Counted from the stretch's first letter, positions 20,239-61,654 are shown. The stretch: DNA of 64,000 bases from Alphaproteobacteria bacterium (GCA_947474565.1 CANJIS010000009.1:2178-66177); one strand, 5' to 3'. Made by a program: numbers and translations. The notes: generated by a model not told the origin, from the sequence alone.

Positions 20239-20451
20239 GGCGAAAACTCCTGCAAACGCTTGGGAAGGGCTGCTTATCGGCCTTCCCGAGCGGCAAAACA
20301 AGATTCCGCCAGCGCAGAACAGCCCTGAGTGGGCCGCGACTCATGTTGTGGACAAGGGCTGGGGCACTCGCTCCAATGCTTGTGAGTTGCAGTGGGGGCA
20401 GTACGATATCTTGTAGCCCGAAGGTGGGCTTGGCGGGGTAAGGAGCTTTCC

Positions 20452-20907
20452 ATGAACCAGATGAACTGGTCGGACGACCGGGTGGAGCAACTCAAGACGC
20501 TTTGGACGGAAGGCCTTTCCGCCAGCCAGATCGCGCGCGCCCTGGGCGGCGTGACCCGCAATGCCGTCATCGGCAAGGTACACCGGTTGGGCCTGGCAGG
20601 CCGCGCCAGCCCCTCGCGGGCCGAGCGCCCCCGGGTCTCCCTGCCCAAGGTGCCGTCCATGCGCACCCATGTCCCGGCCATTCCGGTGGTGGAGGAGGAT
20701 CCGCTGACCCTGGATGACGGCAGCCACGCCACCGTGCTCACCATTTCCGACCGCATGTGCCGCTGGCCGATCGGCGACCCTGCGGCAACGGAATTCCATT
20801 TCTGCGGGCACTCGCCCAAATCCGGCTCGCCTTATTGCGAGGCGCATGCCCGCAAGGCCTACCAGCCGCAGCAGGCGCGCAAGGACAAAGGGCGCATGGT
20901 GGGGTGA
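20452..20907 (+). CDS. gcrA: Cell cycle regulator GcrA
   Basis: WSDDRVEQLKTLWTEGLSASQIA, TRNAVIGKVHRLGL, CRWPIGDP, YCEAHA. Confidence 0.96.
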   Translation: MNQMNWSDDRVEQLKTLWTEGLSASQIARALGGVTRNAVIGKVHRLGLAGRASPSRAERPRVSLPKVPSMRTHVPAIPVVEEDPLTLDDGSHATVLTISDRMCRWPIGDPAATEFHFCGHSPKSGSPYCEAHARKAYQPQQARKDKGRMVG

Positions 20908-21075
20908 AATGCGACCGGCTTCGCCGGTCAAATCGGTCCTGACGGACCGATTTGAGCATTTCACGCGCCGAGCACGGGCGAGGCGCCAGACCGCTGTTGA
21001 CGCAAGCACGCCTGTGTTCTCATGCTTCGACAGTCGCTAGCGACAGCGTAGTGCGACCAGCATGAGGAGTTGGCC

Positions 21076-55750: not shown

Positions 55751-56880
55751 ATCTTGGTTTCCGCCTGGGCGCGGCCTTTCCACATGCCGCCCCTGCCCCG
55801 CCAATGCTGGATGGCGGAATCGAGCGTGAAAGCAGCGTAGGTGAGTCCCATCAACGGCAAAGCCAAACCCCAGAACGGCGACAAGCGATAGAAGCGCAGC
55901 ATGGGCTGGAACATCAGCGCCATGATAATCCAGGTGGCCCAGCCGGCGATCTGCCCCAGGCCCGCGCCAAACAGCGCCATCCCGACGGGCGCGATATATA
56001 CCACAAACAGGCCCAGCAGCGTGCCAAGCAGCAGCAGCGGCGAATAGCTGAGCTGGGCATAAGCCGAGCGCGCCACCATGCGGCGAATTTCGGCAAAACC
56101 GTCATAGGGCCGCAGCGATACCGCGCGGTCGCTGAGGCCCAGCCAGATCGGGCCTTGCGGCTTCATCAGCCGCGCCAGAGCGCAGTCATCAATGATGTTG
56201 CGATGAATGGCTTCAATGCCGCCTGCCACGATCAAATTTGAGCGCCGCGCCAGCATGCAGCCGCCGGCCGCCGCCGCCAGCTTGTTTTTCGGATCATTCA
56301 CCGCGCCGAAGGGAAACAGCATGTCGAAGAAAAACACGAAGGCCGGGATCAGGAACGCTTCGGCCCAGCTGGCGCAGGACAGGCGCGCCATCAGCGATAC
56401 CAGAACCTTGCCGTCCTGTTCGGCGCGCGCCACCAGCCGGGAAAGATTGTCGGGCGCATGCGCGATATCGGCATCGGTGAAGAGCAGAAAATCCGGCGCG
56501 AATTCATCGGCCTTGGCCACGCCCTGATGCATGGCCCACAGCTTGCCGGCCCAGCCCGGCGGGCGCTGGACGCCGGAGAGGATGGTGAGCTTGTCGAAAT
56601 TCATCGCCCGCAAAAGACTGGCGGTGCCGTCGTCGGATTGGTCGTCCACCAGAATGACGCGGAAATCGCCTTGGTAATCCTGGGCCAGCAAGCTGCAGAT
56701 GCTTTTCTGGATCACGTCGGCTTCATTGCGCGCAGGCACCACCGCCACTACCGAAGGCCAACGTGCGGGAGCAGGCAGGACTTCGTGGCCATCCCGCTCC
56801 TTCAACTGCCAGAAGCCGTTATGGGCCAGCAGCAGATAAAGCCATATCGCCAGCGGCAGAAAACCCAGCAGCAGCGTCAT
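55747..56880 (-). CDS. hpnB: Hopene-associated glycosyltransferase (GT2)
   Basis: VPARNEA, GWAGKLWA, FTDAD, AAAGGC, IIDDC, MVARSAY. Confidence 0.9.
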   Translation of the reverse strand: MTLLLGFLPLAIWLYLLLAHNGFWQLKERDGHEVLPAPARWPSVVAVVPARNEADVIQKSICSLLAQDYQGDFRVILVDDQSDDGTASLLRAMNFDKLTILSGVQRPPGWAGKLWAMHQGVAKADEFAPDFLLFTDADIAHAPDNLSRLVARAEQDGKVLVSLMARLSCASWAEAFLIPAFVFFFDMLFPFGAVNDPKNKLAAAAGGCMLARRSNLIVAGGIEAIHRNIIDDCALARLMKPQGPIWLGLSDRAVSLRPYDGFAEIRRMVARSAYAQLSYSPLLLLGTLLGLFVVYIAPVGMALFGAGLGQIAGWATWIIMALMFQPMLRFYRLSPFWGLALPLMGLTYAAFTLDSAIQHWRGRGGMWKGRAQAETKI

Positions 56881-57869
56881 GACAGATACCCGTGGGCACG
56901 GAACCAGGCGATGGCATCGGTCAGGCCTTCAACATAAGGCCTGGCGCGATAACCCAATTCGCTGGAAGCCTTGGCGGAAGAAAAAAACATGTGATAGCGC
57001 GACATGCGCAGGGCATCGGCGGTGAGCATCGGCTCCTTGCCGGTGAGCCGCGCCAACGCTTCCGCGCCATAGGCCAGCGGAAACAGGGGCGCACGGGGAA
57101 GCTTGATCCGCGGCGGTTTGCGCCCCGTCAGGCGCGCAATCTCAGCCAGCATGGCTTCCAGCGAAACATCCGCGCCGCCCAGAATGTAGTTCTGTCCGAT
57201 GCAGCCTTTTTCCAGCGCCAGAAAATGGCCCTCGGCCACATCTTCCACATGCACCAGGTTGAGACCGGTATCGACAAAGGCGGGCATGCGGCCGGTGGCG
57301 GCTTCGACAATAATACGGCCGGTGGGTGTGGGCTTGATATCGCGCGGGCCGATGGGGGTGGATGGCGCCACGATCACGGCAGGCAGATTTTCTTCCGCCA
57401 CCAGGCGTTCAACTTCGCGTTCCGTCACCAGCTTGCTGCGCTTATAGGCGCCGATGGCGCTTTGCGGGGTGTGGCGGGATGTTTCGTCCACCGCTTCGCC
57501 ATTGCCCGGCTTCAAGGCCGCCACCGAAGACGTATAGACCACCCGCTCCACGCCGGCTTTCAAGGCCGCCTGCATGGTGGCGCGCGCGCCTTCCAGATTG
57601 TTGCGCTCGATCTCCGACGGGTCTTTGGCCCAGAGCCGGTAATCCGCCGCGACATGAAACAGATAACGCGTGCCGGACATCGCGCGCGCCATGGAGTCAG
57701 CATCGCGCATATCGCCTTCCACCGGCTCCACCGTCAGGCCCGCGATATTGGCGTGGTTGGAGCCCTGCCGCATCAGCACCCGGGTCTTGAAACCACGGGC
57801 CAGCGCCGCGCGCGTCACGGCAGCACCTACAAATCCGGAAGCACCGGTGACCAAAATGGTATCGCTCAC
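56877..57869 (-). CDS. hpnA: Hopanoid-associated NAD-dependent epimerase
   Basis: VTGASGFVG, HVAADYRLW, YKRSK, PIGPRDIKPTPTG; GTG start. Confidence 0.94.
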   Translation of the reverse strand: MSDTILVTGASGFVGAAVTRAALARGFKTRVLMRQGSNHANIAGLTVEPVEGDMRDADSMARAMSGTRYLFHVAADYRLWAKDPSEIERNNLEGARATMQAALKAGVERVVYTSSVAALKPGNGEAVDETSRHTPQSAIGAYKRSKLVTEREVERLVAEENLPAVIVAPSTPIGPRDIKPTPTGRIIVEAATGRMPAFVDTGLNLVHVEDVAEGHFLALEKGCIGQNYILGGADVSLEAMLAEIARLTGRKPPRIKLPRAPLFPLAYGAEALARLTGKEPMLTADALRMSRYHMFFSSAKASSELGYRARPYVEGLTDAIAWFRAHGYLS

Positions 57870-58012
57870 TGCCTCGGTTCTCCCCCGGCCGCTCGCTCAA
57901 GCTCGCGGCGCTCGTCGCTTTCGCAGGTCCACCGGACCTGCTCATGCGCTGCGCGCATCGCTCCTCGCCCCACAAATCCGGAAGCACCGGTAACAAGGAC
58001 CGTGTCACTCAT
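57829..58012 (-). mobile_element. 143-bp palindromic micro-insertion between two copies of the hpnA 5' end
   Basis: Identical 20-bp core at 57829-57848 and 57972-57991; internal palindromes gcaggtcc-acc-ggacctgc and atgcgc-tgc-gcgcat (plus strand). Confidence 0.7.
57866..58012 (-). CDS. 48-aa bridging ORF beginning with a duplicate HpnA N-terminus
   Basis: MSDTVLVTGASGFVGRGAMRAAHEQVRWTCESDERRELERAAGGEPRQ*; ATG overlaps the hpnL stop; TGA overlaps the hpnA GTG. Confidence 0.55.
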   Translation of the reverse strand: MSDTVLVTGASGFVGRGAMRAAHEQVRWTCESDERRELERAAGGEPRQ

Positions 58013-58988
58013 GCGCGCTCTTGAAAGCTTTGCGGCTTTCAAAGCCCTGCCAATAGATCAGCGCAGGAACGCCGATCACAATCTCTCTCGCCCGCTTGAG
58101 CAGCGATACCGCCAGTCCCATTTCCGCGGACAACCCGAACAGGGGCGCCAGAAAAACGTAACCCGCCTCCTGCACCCCGATAGCGGCGGGCACAAAGGCG
58201 GCAATGCTGCGCAGGGTGCAGAGCAAAGCTTCCAGTGCGATGGCATTGAGCAGGCTGATCTGACCGCCCACCAACTGGAAAGCGATAAAGGTGCCGCCGC
58301 CCGCGCCGATCCAGGAAATCAGATGCATGGCGGCGGAGGCCGCCAACCGGGAGGGCGAGTCGTAAAGCGTTTCGATAGCGGCGCGGAAGGAGACCCCGGT
58401 CTGGGTCTGCGGGAAAAAGCGGGCAGCGATTTTTTCCGCGAAGCTGGCGCCTTTTTTCTGCAACAGGATCAGAAGCGCGATGCCGGGCGCCGCCAGGATC
58501 AGCACCAGCACCATCGCCCAGGTCAGCGTGGTGCTGTTTTCCATGTGGCGGAATTGGGTGAAGCCCAGGCCCAATCCGAACGCCAGGAAAGCCACCTGTG
58601 CCATCGCCTCGGTGGTGGCGTCGGCAGCGACCGAAGCCGCCGCGTAAGAGGCGTTCATGCCCTTCAGGATCATCAGCCTTGCGGCGGCCACCATGCCGCC
58701 CACCGGCGAGAAGGGCGAGATCTCGGCGATGGAGTCGCGCACCAGCCGGGCAATATAGAGATCAGCGATGGGCCGGCGCTCTTCCTGCGGCAACAGAAAT
58801 TGCCATGCAAAAGCCAGCGAAATGAATACCACCAGGGCGTAGAGGCAGAGCAACGCCAGCCCGCCCAGACCGGCGCGCGCGACGGCGCCGAACACCGCGT
58901 CAAAACCGATGGCCCAGATGAGATAGACGGCCGCGACCAGCCCCACCAGAAGCGCGATGGCCACGCCTATCTTGGGGCCCCATTTCAT
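58005..58988 (-). CDS. hpnL: HpnL-like membrane protein (lysylphosphatidylglycerol synthase TM domain)
   Basis: RLVRDS, PVGGMV, FVPAAIGVQEAGY, SLLKRARE; multi-TM. Confidence 0.85.
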   Translation of the reverse strand: MKWGPKIGVAIALLVGLVAAVYLIWAIGFDAVFGAVARAGLGGLALLCLYALVVFISLAFAWQFLLPQEERRPIADLYIARLVRDSIAEISPFSPVGGMVAAARLMILKGMNASYAAASVAADATTEAMAQVAFLAFGLGLGFTQFRHMENSTTLTWAMVLVLILAAPGIALLILLQKKGASFAEKIAARFFPQTQTGVSFRAAIETLYDSPSRLAASAAMHLISWIGAGGGTFIAFQLVGGQISLLNAIALEALLCTLRSIAAFVPAAIGVQEAGYVFLAPLFGLSAEMGLAVSLLKRAREIVIGVPALIYWQGFESRKAFKSAHE

Positions 58989-58993
58989 TGGGT

Positions 58994-59842
58994 TCAGGCA
59001 GGCAGCGGCTTGGCGCGGAAGCTCCACAGCCGCATCGCGCCCAGCGCCGTTTCCGCCAGCTGCGGCAGGAAGCTGGGACGCAGCAATTCGGCGTCAAAAG
59101 CATCCATGCGGCGGCGGTTTTCCGAATAGCAGTCTTCCAGGAAGCGGCTGAAAGTGAAGCCGTCGAGGAACACCGAAGCCTGGGTGGCGGTGAATTCCTT
59201 GCCGTCGTTCAAGTCTTTGCCGCGCTTGGCGGTGCCGATCATGCGGCCCAAGGCGCGCATATAGTAGCGGAAAGAAGTCAGCGGCAGCATTACCTTCGAC
59301 AGCGCGCCCTTCTGTGCCTGGGTATAGGCCATCCAGTTGACGAAGAAGACGATGTGACGGGTTTCTTCGTACATCAGGGTTTCGAAGATGGCGAACATCT
59401 CTTTGGGAAGAAATTCCGACTGCATCGCGATCTTGAAGACGCCGAAGCCCAGGAAGGAATCCATGCATTCGCCAAAGCCGAAATCCTTGAAGCGGGTTTC
59501 GACATTGTCGGACACATCTTCCAGCGGCCGTTCGGCGGCGTCGATATTGTATTTCTTGATCATAAAACGGATCATCTCGGCGTGGCGGGCTTCCTCGAAA
59601 CCCTGCAGCGCCACGGCTTCCTTCAGCACCGGATCGGTGATGGTTTCCGTGAAAGCGGCGACAATCGCGCCCGCCCGGCGCTCGGTATAGAAAACCTCTT
59701 CCCAGAACGGCACCGATTTCAGCCGCTGCAAGGCAGCGTCATCCAGTTCAGGCCAAGGCAGCTTTTCCGGATGGAATTCCGAATATGTCCGCATGAAGTG
59801 ACTGCAAAATGCGTCGCGATGTTCGAGCGAGCCGATCTTCAT
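58994..59842 (-). CDS. Ferritin-like diiron-carboxylate protein, paralog B
   Basis: TERRAG...GFEEARH...GECMDSF...EETRH; E-x29-ExxH-x37-E-x34-ExxH. Confidence 0.85.
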   Translation of the reverse strand: MKIGSLEHRDAFCSHFMRTYSEFHPEKLPWPELDDAALQRLKSVPFWEEVFYTERRAGAIVAAFTETITDPVLKEAVALQGFEEARHAEMIRFMIKKYNIDAAERPLEDVSDNVETRFKDFGFGECMDSFLGFGVFKIAMQSEFLPKEMFAIFETLMYEETRHIVFFVNWMAYTQAQKGALSKVMLPLTSFRYYMRALGRMIGTAKRGKDLNDGKEFTATQASVFLDGFTFSRFLEDCYSENRRRMDAFDAELLRPSFLPQLAETALGAMRLWSFRAKPLPA

Positions 59843-60780
59843 GCTGCGGCCTTTTTCTTACCGACGAATTTCAGCGCCATCCGGGCCATGAACGGCACGA
59901 AACGGGGGCGCCTGAGACGGGCATCGTAAAGCGAAGTCGAAAGCCGCTTCTCATTTTCAGAAAGGCAGATGGTGATCAGCTCGCCAATATCGATATCGGC
60001 GCCCAGCTTGCTGGCGCCGTTCATGGTGAAATTCCAGTCCTGCTCGCCATGCCCGACGTCGGAAGCCATGTTGATCCGCTCATAAATCAGGAACAGCCAG
60101 ACCCCGAGTACCCGAAGCTCAAACCAGGGCCGGCGCCAGAACGGCATGTTGCGGCGATGCCAGGCCACCCAATTGACGAAGAAGAGGATATGCCGCCCCT
60201 CTTCCTTGATCACTGGATCAAAGGTCTCCACCAGTTCGGGCGGGAAAAATCCGGTGTCCTTGGCGGCCTTGAACAAACCGAAGGCGAAGAAGGAATCGAT
60301 ACATTCGCTATAGCCGGTGAGCAGGAAATGCCATTCCGGATCTTTCGGCTTTTCATAAACCGGTTCCGGCGACAGCTTGATGCCATAGGCTTCGACCAGA
60401 TTGGCCAGCACATGGCGGTGGCGGCGCTCTTCAAAGCCGTTCAGTTCGATGGCTTTGCGCAGCAAGGGATCGGGCACCATTTCGGCATAGGTGCAGACAT
60501 TCAGCCCGGCGCGATTTTCGGTCTGCACCGCGATGTCCCAGATCGGCAGGGAGGTGATGCGCTTCTCAGCTTCCTCGCCCAGACGGGGCCAATCCAGCAC
60601 GGCGGGGCGGTAGGGATCGAAGGTGTCCAGCAGGGTCTTGCAGAACAATCTTTTGTGCTCATCCGAGCCGATCTTGATCGGTCCGTCGCCCGGCCAGGTG
60701 CCGGTATCGCGGGTCAAGTCGGGGGGTATGGCAAAGGCCGAACTGCTCATGGAACCCGTGTTAAGTGTTTGAAATGTCAT
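59839..60780 (-). CDS. Ferritin-like diiron-carboxylate protein, paralog A
   Basis: TENRAG...GFEERRH...SECIDSF...EEGRH; same spacing as B; start at 60780 or 60750. Confidence 0.85.
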   Translation of the reverse strand: MTFQTLNTGSMSSSAFAIPPDLTRDTGTWPGDGPIKIGSDEHKRLFCKTLLDTFDPYRPAVLDWPRLGEEAEKRITSLPIWDIAVQTENRAGLNVCTYAEMVPDPLLRKAIELNGFEERRHRHVLANLVEAYGIKLSPEPVYEKPKDPEWHFLLTGYSECIDSFFAFGLFKAAKDTGFFPPELVETFDPVIKEEGRHILFFVNWVAWHRRNMPFWRRPWFELRVLGVWLFLIYERINMASDVGHGEQDWNFTMNGASKLGADIDIGELITICLSENEKRLSTSLYDARLRRPRFVPFMARMALKFVGKKKAAA

Positions 60781-60808
60781 CGGCAACGCCCAGCCGCAGA
60801 CTTGTTTG

Positions 60809-61654
60809 TCAGTGTATCGGAAAGTCGCTGAAACCGCCAAGGCGAATATCGCCGCTGGCGATCAGACCCGGCATGCGCGGATCGATCAGGGCGGCCAGTT
60901 CGGCGCGGTATTCATAGTCCGGCACGGCACCTGGAAACGTACCGCCCGTGGCCGGATGCATATAAATCTCGGTCAGGCCCTTGGGCAGGTTGGAGAGAAG
61001 GCCAACCAGCCGGCCGGCCCGCATCGCCCCGCTCCAGGCCAGGCCGAAAACCTGATCGGGGGCGGCGATCCCGGCGCGGCGGAAACGGCTACGCAGGGCG
61101 CGGGCGAAAGGCTGGGTCAGCGCCACGGTGCCCGACACGCCGGTCTTTTCGATTGCGCGCAAGACCTTTTGCGGCTCCAGCGGCACACGTGCGCCTTTGG
61201 CGCCGTGACGGCGGGCGAATTTCACCATCACGTCGGCGATGGTGGGATGCAGATGAAAATGCTTGTGAGCGTTGACGTGGTCGAGCGGCAATCCCGTGGC
61301 TTCGAAGGCGGCGAACTGGGCTTCGACTTCCGCTTCCAGTTGGCGGCGCACCTTGGGCAGGAAGAACATTGCGGCGCCTGCCCGCGCCATATCGGTACGG
61401 AAAAAGCCGCGCTCATTCACCAGATCGGGCACCTTATCGGCGGGCAATACCGGCCTGCCCTCCACCAGCACCAGATGCAGGCCGACCCGCAGGTTCGGCA
61501 TGCCCCTGGCGCGGCGCAACGCATCGGCGGCGTGGGTGCCCGACACCATCAGGCTGGCGGCGGTGAGAATGCCATTGCGATGGGCGTGCTCAACCGCATC
61601 ATTGACCGCTTCGGCGGCGCCGAAGTCGTCTGCGGTGACGATGAGCCGTCGCAC
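60809..61654 (-). CDS. hpnK: Hopanoid biosynthesis-associated deacetylase (YdjC family)
   Basis: TADDFG, GLHL, HVNAHKHFHLHP, EIYMHP. Confidence 0.93.
   Translation of the reverse strand: MRRLIVTADDFGAAEAVNDAVEHAHRNGILTAASLMVSGTHAADALRRARGMPNLRVGLHLVLVEGRPVLPADKVPDLVNERGFFRTDMARAGAAMFFLPKVRRQLEAEVEAQFAAFEATGLPLDHVNAHKHFHLHPTIADVMVKFARRHGAKGARVPLEPQKVLRAIEKTGVSGTVALTQPFARALRSRFRRAGIAAPDQVFGLAWSGAMRAGRLVGLLSNLPKGLTEIYMHPATGGTFPGAVPDYEYRAELAALIDPRMPGLIASGDIRLGGFSDFPIH

Follow-up and report, generated by a model that had tools for sequence, protein, structure and literature searches.

The window, by which we mean the whole stretch of 64,000 nucleotides (nt) analyzed here from an Alphaproteobacteria bacterium (GCA_947474565.1, CANJIS010000009.1), carries a hopanoid locus in which the start of hpnA is present twice, 143 nt apart, at the junction with hpnL. 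We observe that the 143 extra bases are made up of a full-length copy of a small structured repeat, a 13-nt spacer containing GGAG, and a replacement of the first 44 nt of hpnA. The explanation that we favor, with a probability of about one half, is that the repeat and the new start came from the allele of a relative that already bore the repeat between hpnL and hpnA, with a 48-codon open reading frame (ORF) that bridges the insert and would preserve the coupling of the two genes. All junction features lie on the minus strand of the window, and their coordinates are collected in Table 1.

On that strand, the hpnL DNA ends in ...GCGCATGAGTGA, and the ATG overlapping its stop codon opens the upstream copy of the hpnA start (MSDTVLVTGASGFVG...), whereas hpnA itself now begins at a GTG (VSDTILVTGASGFVG...). 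As the original prediction had described, the two 15-codon copies differ in the start codon, in seven synonymous codons and in one V/I codon, around an identical 20-nt core (ACCGGTGCTTCCGGATTTGT), which occurs exactly twice in the 64 kb with 0 occurrences expected by chance. The bridging ORF that it had proposed is present as well, with an ATG that overlaps the hpnL stop (ATGAGTGA) and a TGA that overlaps the GTG of hpnA (GTGA), and a search with its peptide returned no protein-family match.

The duplicated start is confirmed, and the possibility that it is an assembly artifact is very unlikely. Two more independent assemblies (L081 and L082) show 100% identity across the region, in at least 8 runs belonging to 3 studies Logan contigs cover each unique junction free of mismatches and with equal depth on both sides, and no competing hpnL end or hpnA start was found in the Logan contigs. 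Furthermore, a single contig from an unrelated study (run X13), derived from a diverged relative that is ~94% identical and aligned to window positions 57852-58013, runs over both junctions. Against three identical assemblies and junctions supported in this way, a chimera formed in assembly via the repeated element has a negligible chance of being the explanation, even though Logan contigs from several runs do end at identical bases inside the insert (57941 and 57915). These breaks arise because the core of the insert is a community-wide repeat: in lake metagenomes, read depth rises 10- to 70-fold, from ~13x on the flanks to 150-880x over positions 57886-57957, with the extra depth coming from many contigs that have other flanks. 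The relative in run X13 shows the same order of remnant, element and new start.

The spacer DNA between the two copies belongs to a large structured-repeat family, characterized by a three-way junction with a conserved 3' hairpin. The family consensus of ~89 nt consists of (G)GGTGAG, a closing helix, two hairpins, CGAAC and the box GCCGCGAGCTTGGGCGAGCGGCCGG, with hairpin 2 having a conserved GTCC-AGT-GGAC top. The invariant box is GCCGCGAGCTTGRGCGAGCGGC, and the window copy of the 22-mer hairpin box lies at 57888-57909. A search of metagenomes with this 22-mer recovered at least 120 contigs from soil, rhizosphere and freshwater. From 75 metagenome copies and the window copy we built a covariance model, R1 (76 rows), which matches the window element over model positions 1-89 with 97 bits (E = 4e-17, the window copy being among the training rows). 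Both hairpins and the closing helix are present in the window copy within 57883-57971, and the insert has a fold z-score of -3.2. Across the family, 97.5% of helix cells are paired, with a covariation score of 0.348 compared to 0.117 for shuffles and 0.02-0.07 for slid controls.

R1 additionally detects a second copy in the window, independent of the training rows, whose GGGGTGA provides the stop codon of a gcrA-like ORF (20392..20907, GcrA match). Exact and 3-mismatch searches find the insert itself once in the window and, among 80 representative genomes of relatives, at the hpnL-hpnA junction only. The original prediction had considered either a tiny non-autonomous element or the scar of a larger one. 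The former is in line with a family of at least 120 copies and a full-length match to R1, and the latter becomes unnecessary, since the insert is a full-length family member; with a second copy in the window and at least 120 contigs in metagenomes, the element is clearly not a single-copy sequence. The reading of the insert as a mere alternative HpnL tail is contradicted by read depth, blastn-short and the metagenome scan.

With respect to known repeat classes, neither the window copy nor any of 12 canonical copies had an Rfam match covering the element, at gathering or at permissive thresholds. The terminal inverted repeats of a canonical miniature inverted-repeat transposable element (MITE) are not seen, with the 5' end matching the reverse-complemented 3' end at 10/25 positions at best, and the ends of the element share a direct GAGCGG rather than inverted termini. 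Equally, there is no fixed short target-site duplication as in canonical MITEs, most copies having none and the others showing variable ones of 27-62 nt. A literature search with the hairpin sequence gave no match, and searches on MITEs and RIME gave general reviews only. In a plasmid collection, three weak matches (73-76%) were found, all inside a Rhizobium gene and judged irrelevant, and the 4 matches in 2.9 million viral contigs give no sign of a phage vector. The repeat family thus fits no catalogued class that could be tested, and it appears to be new.

A separate short motif, CTAGCGACAGCGTAG, with variable inverted arms, is located 45 nt past the second element copy (window positions 21037-21051, plus strand) and is also nested in the hairpins of elements in L094, L096, L109, L146, L006, L111, L189 and L201. 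It looks like a companion mini-hairpin repeat.

Ordinary members of the family are mostly placed right behind the stop codons of unrelated genes. The TGA in the 5' GTGAG closes a long ORF in 39/71 copies, with two control frames giving 12 and 19, and where the upstream flank is coding, it is on the same strand as the repeat in 35 cases versus 13, with the downstream gene often being convergent. About a third of the copies are followed by a same-strand ORF start 10-30 nt past their G-rich 3' end. Overlaps like the one that ends the bridging ORF of the window recur, since 17 of the 40 copies preceding a gene start have a read-through ORF whose stop overlaps that start as NTGA. Partial copies and arrays are frequent (L090, L143, L151 and L186). 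Tandem arrays of the element, or of the element plus flank, are seen at L143:6272-6496 and L090:1754-1917 and in L151 and L186, with periods of ~66, 82, 150 and 125 nt, and in L186 one copy also has an internal deletion whose joint is the direct GAGCGG of both element ends.

Start-anchored, re-coded duplications next to the repeat are also found at hpnK in L006, L181 and L009 (P = 0.007-0.03) and at ligA in L125 (P = 0.0045). In both genes the left joint lies exactly at the edge of the repeat and there is no identical core, and the remnant ORF in L181 and L125 crosses the repeat and stops at an ATGA overlap. The downstream copies of hpnK and ligA are AT-richer at third codon positions, and the hpnK remnant has 18 nt that are identical between L006 and L181. 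Copies flanked by a re-coded duplication of a gene end, which the original prediction had suggested looking for, thus occur at hpnK and ligA; ordinary members carry no gene fragment. At L125:3440-3620, the start of the ligA-like gene (NAD-dependent DNA ligase) is split after codon 16, and an AT-richer re-coded start then follows.

We scanned 59 hopanoid loci of the relatives with R1 and observed the element at two junctions only. At hpnL-hpnA, it is present in L001, L004, L010 and L013 and in the metagenomic L184 and L220, with HpnL reading through it and no duplication; at hpnH-hpnK, it is present in L006, L009 and L012 and in L181. The empty junction that the original prediction had suggested looking for, in which the hpnL stop overlaps the hpnA ATG, is found in the nearest relatives, namely, L209 (HpnA 94%), L210-L212 (89%), L213 (88%), L214 and L215, and for P0002 and P0048 the called gene coordinates alone show the same 4-nt hpnL/hpnA overlap. 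In runs X9 and X10, the window allele is accompanied by an L209-like contig with an empty site. The window and L209 are 85-95% identical over 11 kb with no break, and this uniformity makes the 143-nt insertion the only structural difference between them and rules out the large-scale import of either flank.

In the case of L010 and L013, the hpnL tails read the repeat in different frames over most of its length and end at the same stop overlapping the hpnA GTG, which argues for selection on coupling and not on the peptide. The element in L004 (L004:3858-3991), with a left 30 nt that are identical to the window element, has ~45 extra nt in the hairpin-2 region, and HpnL still reads through to a stop overlapping the hpnA ATG. 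We also considered short HpnL tails as scars of the repeat. The short tail of L005 (GGGCGAGCCGCGTTCCGCGCAGCGGATGAG) matches the left third of the L010 element at 28/30 nt and then diverges (L005:3963-4041 versus L010:3905-3993), so that L005 may carry a truncated element co-opted as a protein tail; this is convincing by eye, but the R1 score is not significant (11.7 bits, E = 1.3), and the candidate was set aside. P0093 (402 amino acids), an HpnA homologue, is annotated with an N-terminal extension of ~70 amino acids resembling an out-of-frame hpnL 3' end, probably a gene-calling error at a junction of this kind.

Table 1. Coordinates of the hpnL-hpnA junction features and of the second repeat copy in the window
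Feature	Position	Strand	Details
hpnL	58005..58988	-	TIGR03476, 250.1 bits (NCBIfam cut-off 195.65); open frame up to 59027
HpnL native short tail, ...YWQGFESRKAFKSAHE and stop	stop overlaps ATG at 58012 (ATGAGTGA)	-	colinear with empty-site relatives L209 and L012
Upstream copy, hpnA codons 1-15	57969..58012	-	now a remnant; ATG at 58012
Identical 20-nt core, copy 1	57972..57991	-	ACCGGTGCTTCCGGATTTGT
Identical 20-nt core, copy 2	57829..57848	-	ACCGGTGCTTCCGGATTTGT
Bridging ORF, 48 codons (predicted)	57866..58012	-	15 native HpnA codons, then reads through the whole repeat
Structured repeat element, 89 nt	57883..57971	-	covariance model R1
Repeat 5' box		-	GGGGCGAG; family consensus GGGGTGAG; consensus TGA lost in the window copy
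Repeat hairpin 1	57944-57958	-	
Repeat hairpin 2	57923-57941	-	GCAGGTCC ggt GGACCTGC
Spacer 3' of repeat, 13 nt	57870..57882	-	Shine-Dalgarno-like GGAG (57880-57883), 10 nt before GTG
hpnA	56877..57869	-	GTG start; TIGR03466, 472.5 bits (NCBIfam cut-off 367.65)
Re-coded patch, first 66 nt of hpnA	57804..57869	-	mismatch excess versus L209
Second repeat copy	20901..20991	+	R1 58 bits, E = 1.5e-9; independent of training; diverged 3' box

Between hpnK and hpnL lie two adjacent genes without a Pfam match (58994-59842 and 59839-60840, both on the minus strand), a pair that is kept in the clusters of all relatives; the two are paralogue-like, with repeated E..RH motifs and possibly a di-iron fold.

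The two hpnA starts do not have the same relationship to the relatives. The upstream copy differs from L209 at 5/44 nt, which is the gene-wide level (10.8%), has AGT GAC in common with it, and stands in the same register as the native junction, still overlapping the hpnL stop as in all close relatives; judged from its sequence, the upstream copy is the original start. The downstream start shows 17 mismatches to L209 in its first 66 nt, versus ~3.2 per 30 nt over the remainder of hpnA, and these 66 nt hold 15 lineage-specific changes, 14 of which are synonymous or affect the start codon. A series of silent changes like this fits the divergence of a functional orthologue and not a recent duplication. 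In addition, nt 1-20 of the downstream start match the hpnA start of the more distant L214 at 19/20 positions, with the rest of hpnA showing 76% identity to L214 and 91% to L209. Overall, the patch is hyper-diverged, silent and mosaic, and L214-like over 20 nt, with no donor found among the relatives. A donor search among relatives with "DTI," "VTRAA" or GTG starts (P0024, P0048, P0049, P0017 and P0082) yielded the S-type lineage L214, whose first 20 nt match, and L220, a new allele bearing the repeat.

The repeat and its surroundings also show affinities to the hpnL-hpnA alleles of relatives. A rarer C-G variant of the pair in alignment columns 13/84 (GCGAG...CGAGC), present in 7/76 copies with the window copy and L184 included, is shared by the window copy and all hpnL-hpnA copies (L001, L004, L010, L013, L184 and L220), and the window spacer and GTG start resemble the alleles of L010 and L013 (GGGGGGGAACT GTGAGCGA). 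With respect to the identical core, both window copies carry ACC and GGA states that are derived compared to L209, and the upstream core in run X13 has TCG GGT in place of TCC GGA, differing from the window core at 2/20 positions. This suggests, and does not prove, that the identical cores of the window are a later gene-conversion tract. Given the lineage-specific ACC and GGA and the X13 difference, core identity is best seen as a tract of exchange or gene conversion and not as an attachment site.

It is because of the silent divergence, the L214 match, the C-G variant and the L010/L013-like spacer and GTG that we favor the import of repeat, spacer and new start, and among the options raised by the original prediction, the data agree best with the third, in which homology-facilitated recombination brought in an allele from a relative. 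The repeat, the spacer and the new start would have arrived together from a related lineage. On the right side, recombination by homology would have occurred in the 5' part of hpnA, and on the left side, the 5' edge of the repeat would have been joined illegitimately to codon 15 of the resident hpnA, resulting in the 44-nt duplication. The left joint reads GTG-GGGCGAG in the window versus GAG-GGGCGAG in the donor type, with G-run microhomology only (GTGGGG/GAGGGG). The identical 20-nt core would then represent either homologous exchange or a later gene-conversion tract.

Several points weigh against this import. No exact donor of the downstream start (GTGAGCGATACCATTTTGGTC...GTAGGTGCT) was found in the donor search among relatives, and the L214 match extends over just 20 nt and could reflect convergent AT-rich start codons. 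Taken as a whole, the window repeat resembles generic members of the family (91% to L163) more closely than it does the hpnL-hpnA copies (81-85%). A duplication is an unusual product of linear-fragment replacement and would need a template switch, a sister molecule or a circular intermediate, and a native-like core inside a diverged patch would need an extra step, such as a mosaic tract or gene conversion. Furthermore, translation of the 48-codon ORF is a prediction from the sequence. Finally, that three separate genes show the same start-anchored duplication points tentatively to a mechanism linked with the element and not to chance recombination.

This last point leads to the main rival, an insertion in situ, which we regard as possible but on the doubtful side. 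Here the repeat would have been copied into hpnA after codon 15, e.g., by replication template switching at its hairpins, with a 44-nt target duplication; the copies would then have diverged, with the downstream one changing fast at synonymous sites as it adapted a new, uncoupled initiation region, and with the core being kept or homogenized by gene conversion. The recurrence at hpnK and ligA fits an element-linked process of this kind, and at hpnA, hpnK and ligA alike the left junction falls exactly at the 5' edge of the repeat. The rival is also in line with the flanking direct repeats of 38-62 nt and the tandem units that are common in the family (L110, L186, L151, L090 and L143), the lineage-specific ACC and GGA common to both cores, the AT-richer third positions in the downstream copies of hpnK and ligA, and the closeness of the window repeat to generic family members. 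However, it would require 66 nt to have taken up 15 changes (14 silent) since L209 split off, which is far above background, and the excess reaches +66, past the duplicated 44 nt and the usual initiation region. The predicted gain in start-site accessibility from the re-coding is small and not significant (0.419 versus 0.37; null 0.395 +/- 0.073), random staggered cuts would not give a duplication that begins at the start codon in all three genes, and the 19/20 match to L214 is left unexplained. We also rejected, as unparsimonious, a tandem duplication in an ancestor that bore the repeat, with the first repeat being lost afterward, since the short native hpnL tail is the same in every close relative.

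The original prediction had leaned toward integration by a site-specific recombinase at the 20-bp core in Rossmann-motif codons, with the insert being a micro-element or an att-flanked remnant that brings along the gene end that replaces the old one. In favor of it, the 20-nt core is identical at the two ends and is flanked by re-coded sequence, and the gene start is replaced and not destroyed, as at two other genes. Nevertheless, we consider this origin quite improbable. Ordinary members have no gene fragments and mostly follow the stop codons of unrelated genes, the split genes elsewhere (hpnK, of the YdjC type, and ligA) are not Rossmann-motif targets, the duplications at hpnK and ligA have no identical core, and the cores of the window and of X13 differ, which speaks against both the proposed targeting and a crossover at the core. 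In addition, the element lacks inverted termini, and the family contexts examined suggested no recombinase, none having been sought among the window ORFs.

With respect to expression of the locus, no promoter-like or terminator-like sites were found in 57500-58400, and the operon transcript should therefore run through the insert. The window copy has lost the in-frame TGA of the family by a T to C change, with a compensating change in the pairing partner, and for that reason the ORF from the hpnL stop can carry ribosomes through the repeat to the GTGA. As suggested by this anatomy, ribosomes ending hpnL would restart at the overlapping ATG, translate the 48-codon ORF across the folded repeat, stop at the GTGA and restart on hpnA, with the GGAG 10 nt upstream. 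Such a relay would keep hpnA translationally coupled despite the insertion, and the bridging peptide is probably incidental.

The repeat might alternatively be a resident functional RNA module that is kept to stabilize, process or insulate the hopanoid mRNA, with the duplication being incidental. We think this unlikely, although the reading concerns function and is compatible with either model of origin. Strong covariation on the transcribed strand, the orientation with the upstream gene (35 versus 13), the recurrence at two hopanoid-cluster junctions in several lineages and the 18-nt identity of the hpnK remnant between L006 and L181 are in its favor. On the other hand, the closest relatives have intact clusters with no element at the junction, and the patchy distribution, the arrays and the internally deleted copies are the behavior of selfish or recombinogenic repeats.

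More speculatively, and with considerable doubt, the repeat could be an "operon-safe" micro-element, with its own stop codon (5' GTGAG), a Shine-Dalgarno-like 3' end and a dedicated insertion mechanism that, on landing in a tight gene junction, regenerates the interrupted gene start as a start-anchored, re-coded duplication and leaves a relay ORF that maintains coupling; if true, such a dedicated mechanism has not been described for repetitive extragenic palindromic elements (REPs), MITEs or Rickettsia palindromic elements (RPEs). Small folded repeats are usually dismissed as intergenic filler, and the family described here is abundant in soil and freshwater Alphaproteobacteria and would seem built to sit inside operons, with one end supplying a stop codon, the other providing a ribosome-binding-like sequence, and bridging ORFs running through. 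The three re-coded start duplications provide a testable case of a repeat that may spread between alleles of an essential-pathway operon without polarity, a case that also bears on the origin of short new ORFs and protein tails. From a practical viewpoint, the family accounts for contigs that break repeatedly in metagenome assemblies, and it could lead gene callers astray at hpnL and hpnA.

When compared to known systems, the junction recalls phage 21 and e14 in icd, which integrate into a coding sequence and bring a replacement gene end. As in such phage or island integrations, a gene end is duplicated with mostly synonymous differences and the gene stays intact; here, in contrast, the insert is 143 bp, no integrase or larger element is apparent, the 5' end is the one replaced, and the identical core is not a family feature. 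A second precedent is homology-facilitated illegitimate recombination in natural transformation, of the type described by de Vries and Wackernagel. The favored import would share with it one homologous anchor (the hpnA 5' region), one joint without homology at G-rich microhomology and a short, putatively foreign orthologous tract, and would differ in giving a duplication instead of a replacement with deletion.

Among repeats of Alphaproteobacteria, the Caulobacter CcrM-associated intergenic repeats (CIR) are named as long intergenic repeats in PMC10969869, and their defining GANTC (CcrM) site occurs in only 1/76 copies of the present family, which is therefore not CIR-like. The RPEs are small non-autonomous repeats inside reading frames that are read through in frame with the gene kept (PMC10969869). 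Like them, the present repeats are alphaproteobacterial, and the HpnL tails of L001, L004, L010, L013 and L220, as well as the predicted 48-codon ORF, read through the repeat. They are nevertheless another sequence family, of ~90 nt compared to ~150 bp, whose usual site is directly after a self-supplied stop codon and which has no conserved peptide, with two frames in use; RPEs are also not reported with a duplicated, re-coded gene start.

The ERIC and QMITE2 repeats, in turn, are found at the 3' ends of genes (PMC10969869), and together with REP/BIME they resemble the present family in being short, GC-rich, structured, abundant and prone to arrays, in sharing the orientation of the upstream transcript and in lying mainly just 3' of genes, often between convergent ones. 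Here, by contrast, a three-way junction with a fixed 22-mer hairpin takes the place of a single imperfect palindrome, the 5' GTGAG acts as a stop codon in more than half of the copies, and the family has no known associated transposase and is absent from Rfam. Structured repeats behind genes (REP and ERIC) and in-frame repeats (the RPEs) are thus known kinds, whereas the combination of a stop-supplying 5' end with a ribosome-binding-like 3' end, the relay ORFs and the repeated link to re-coded start duplications appear to be new features.

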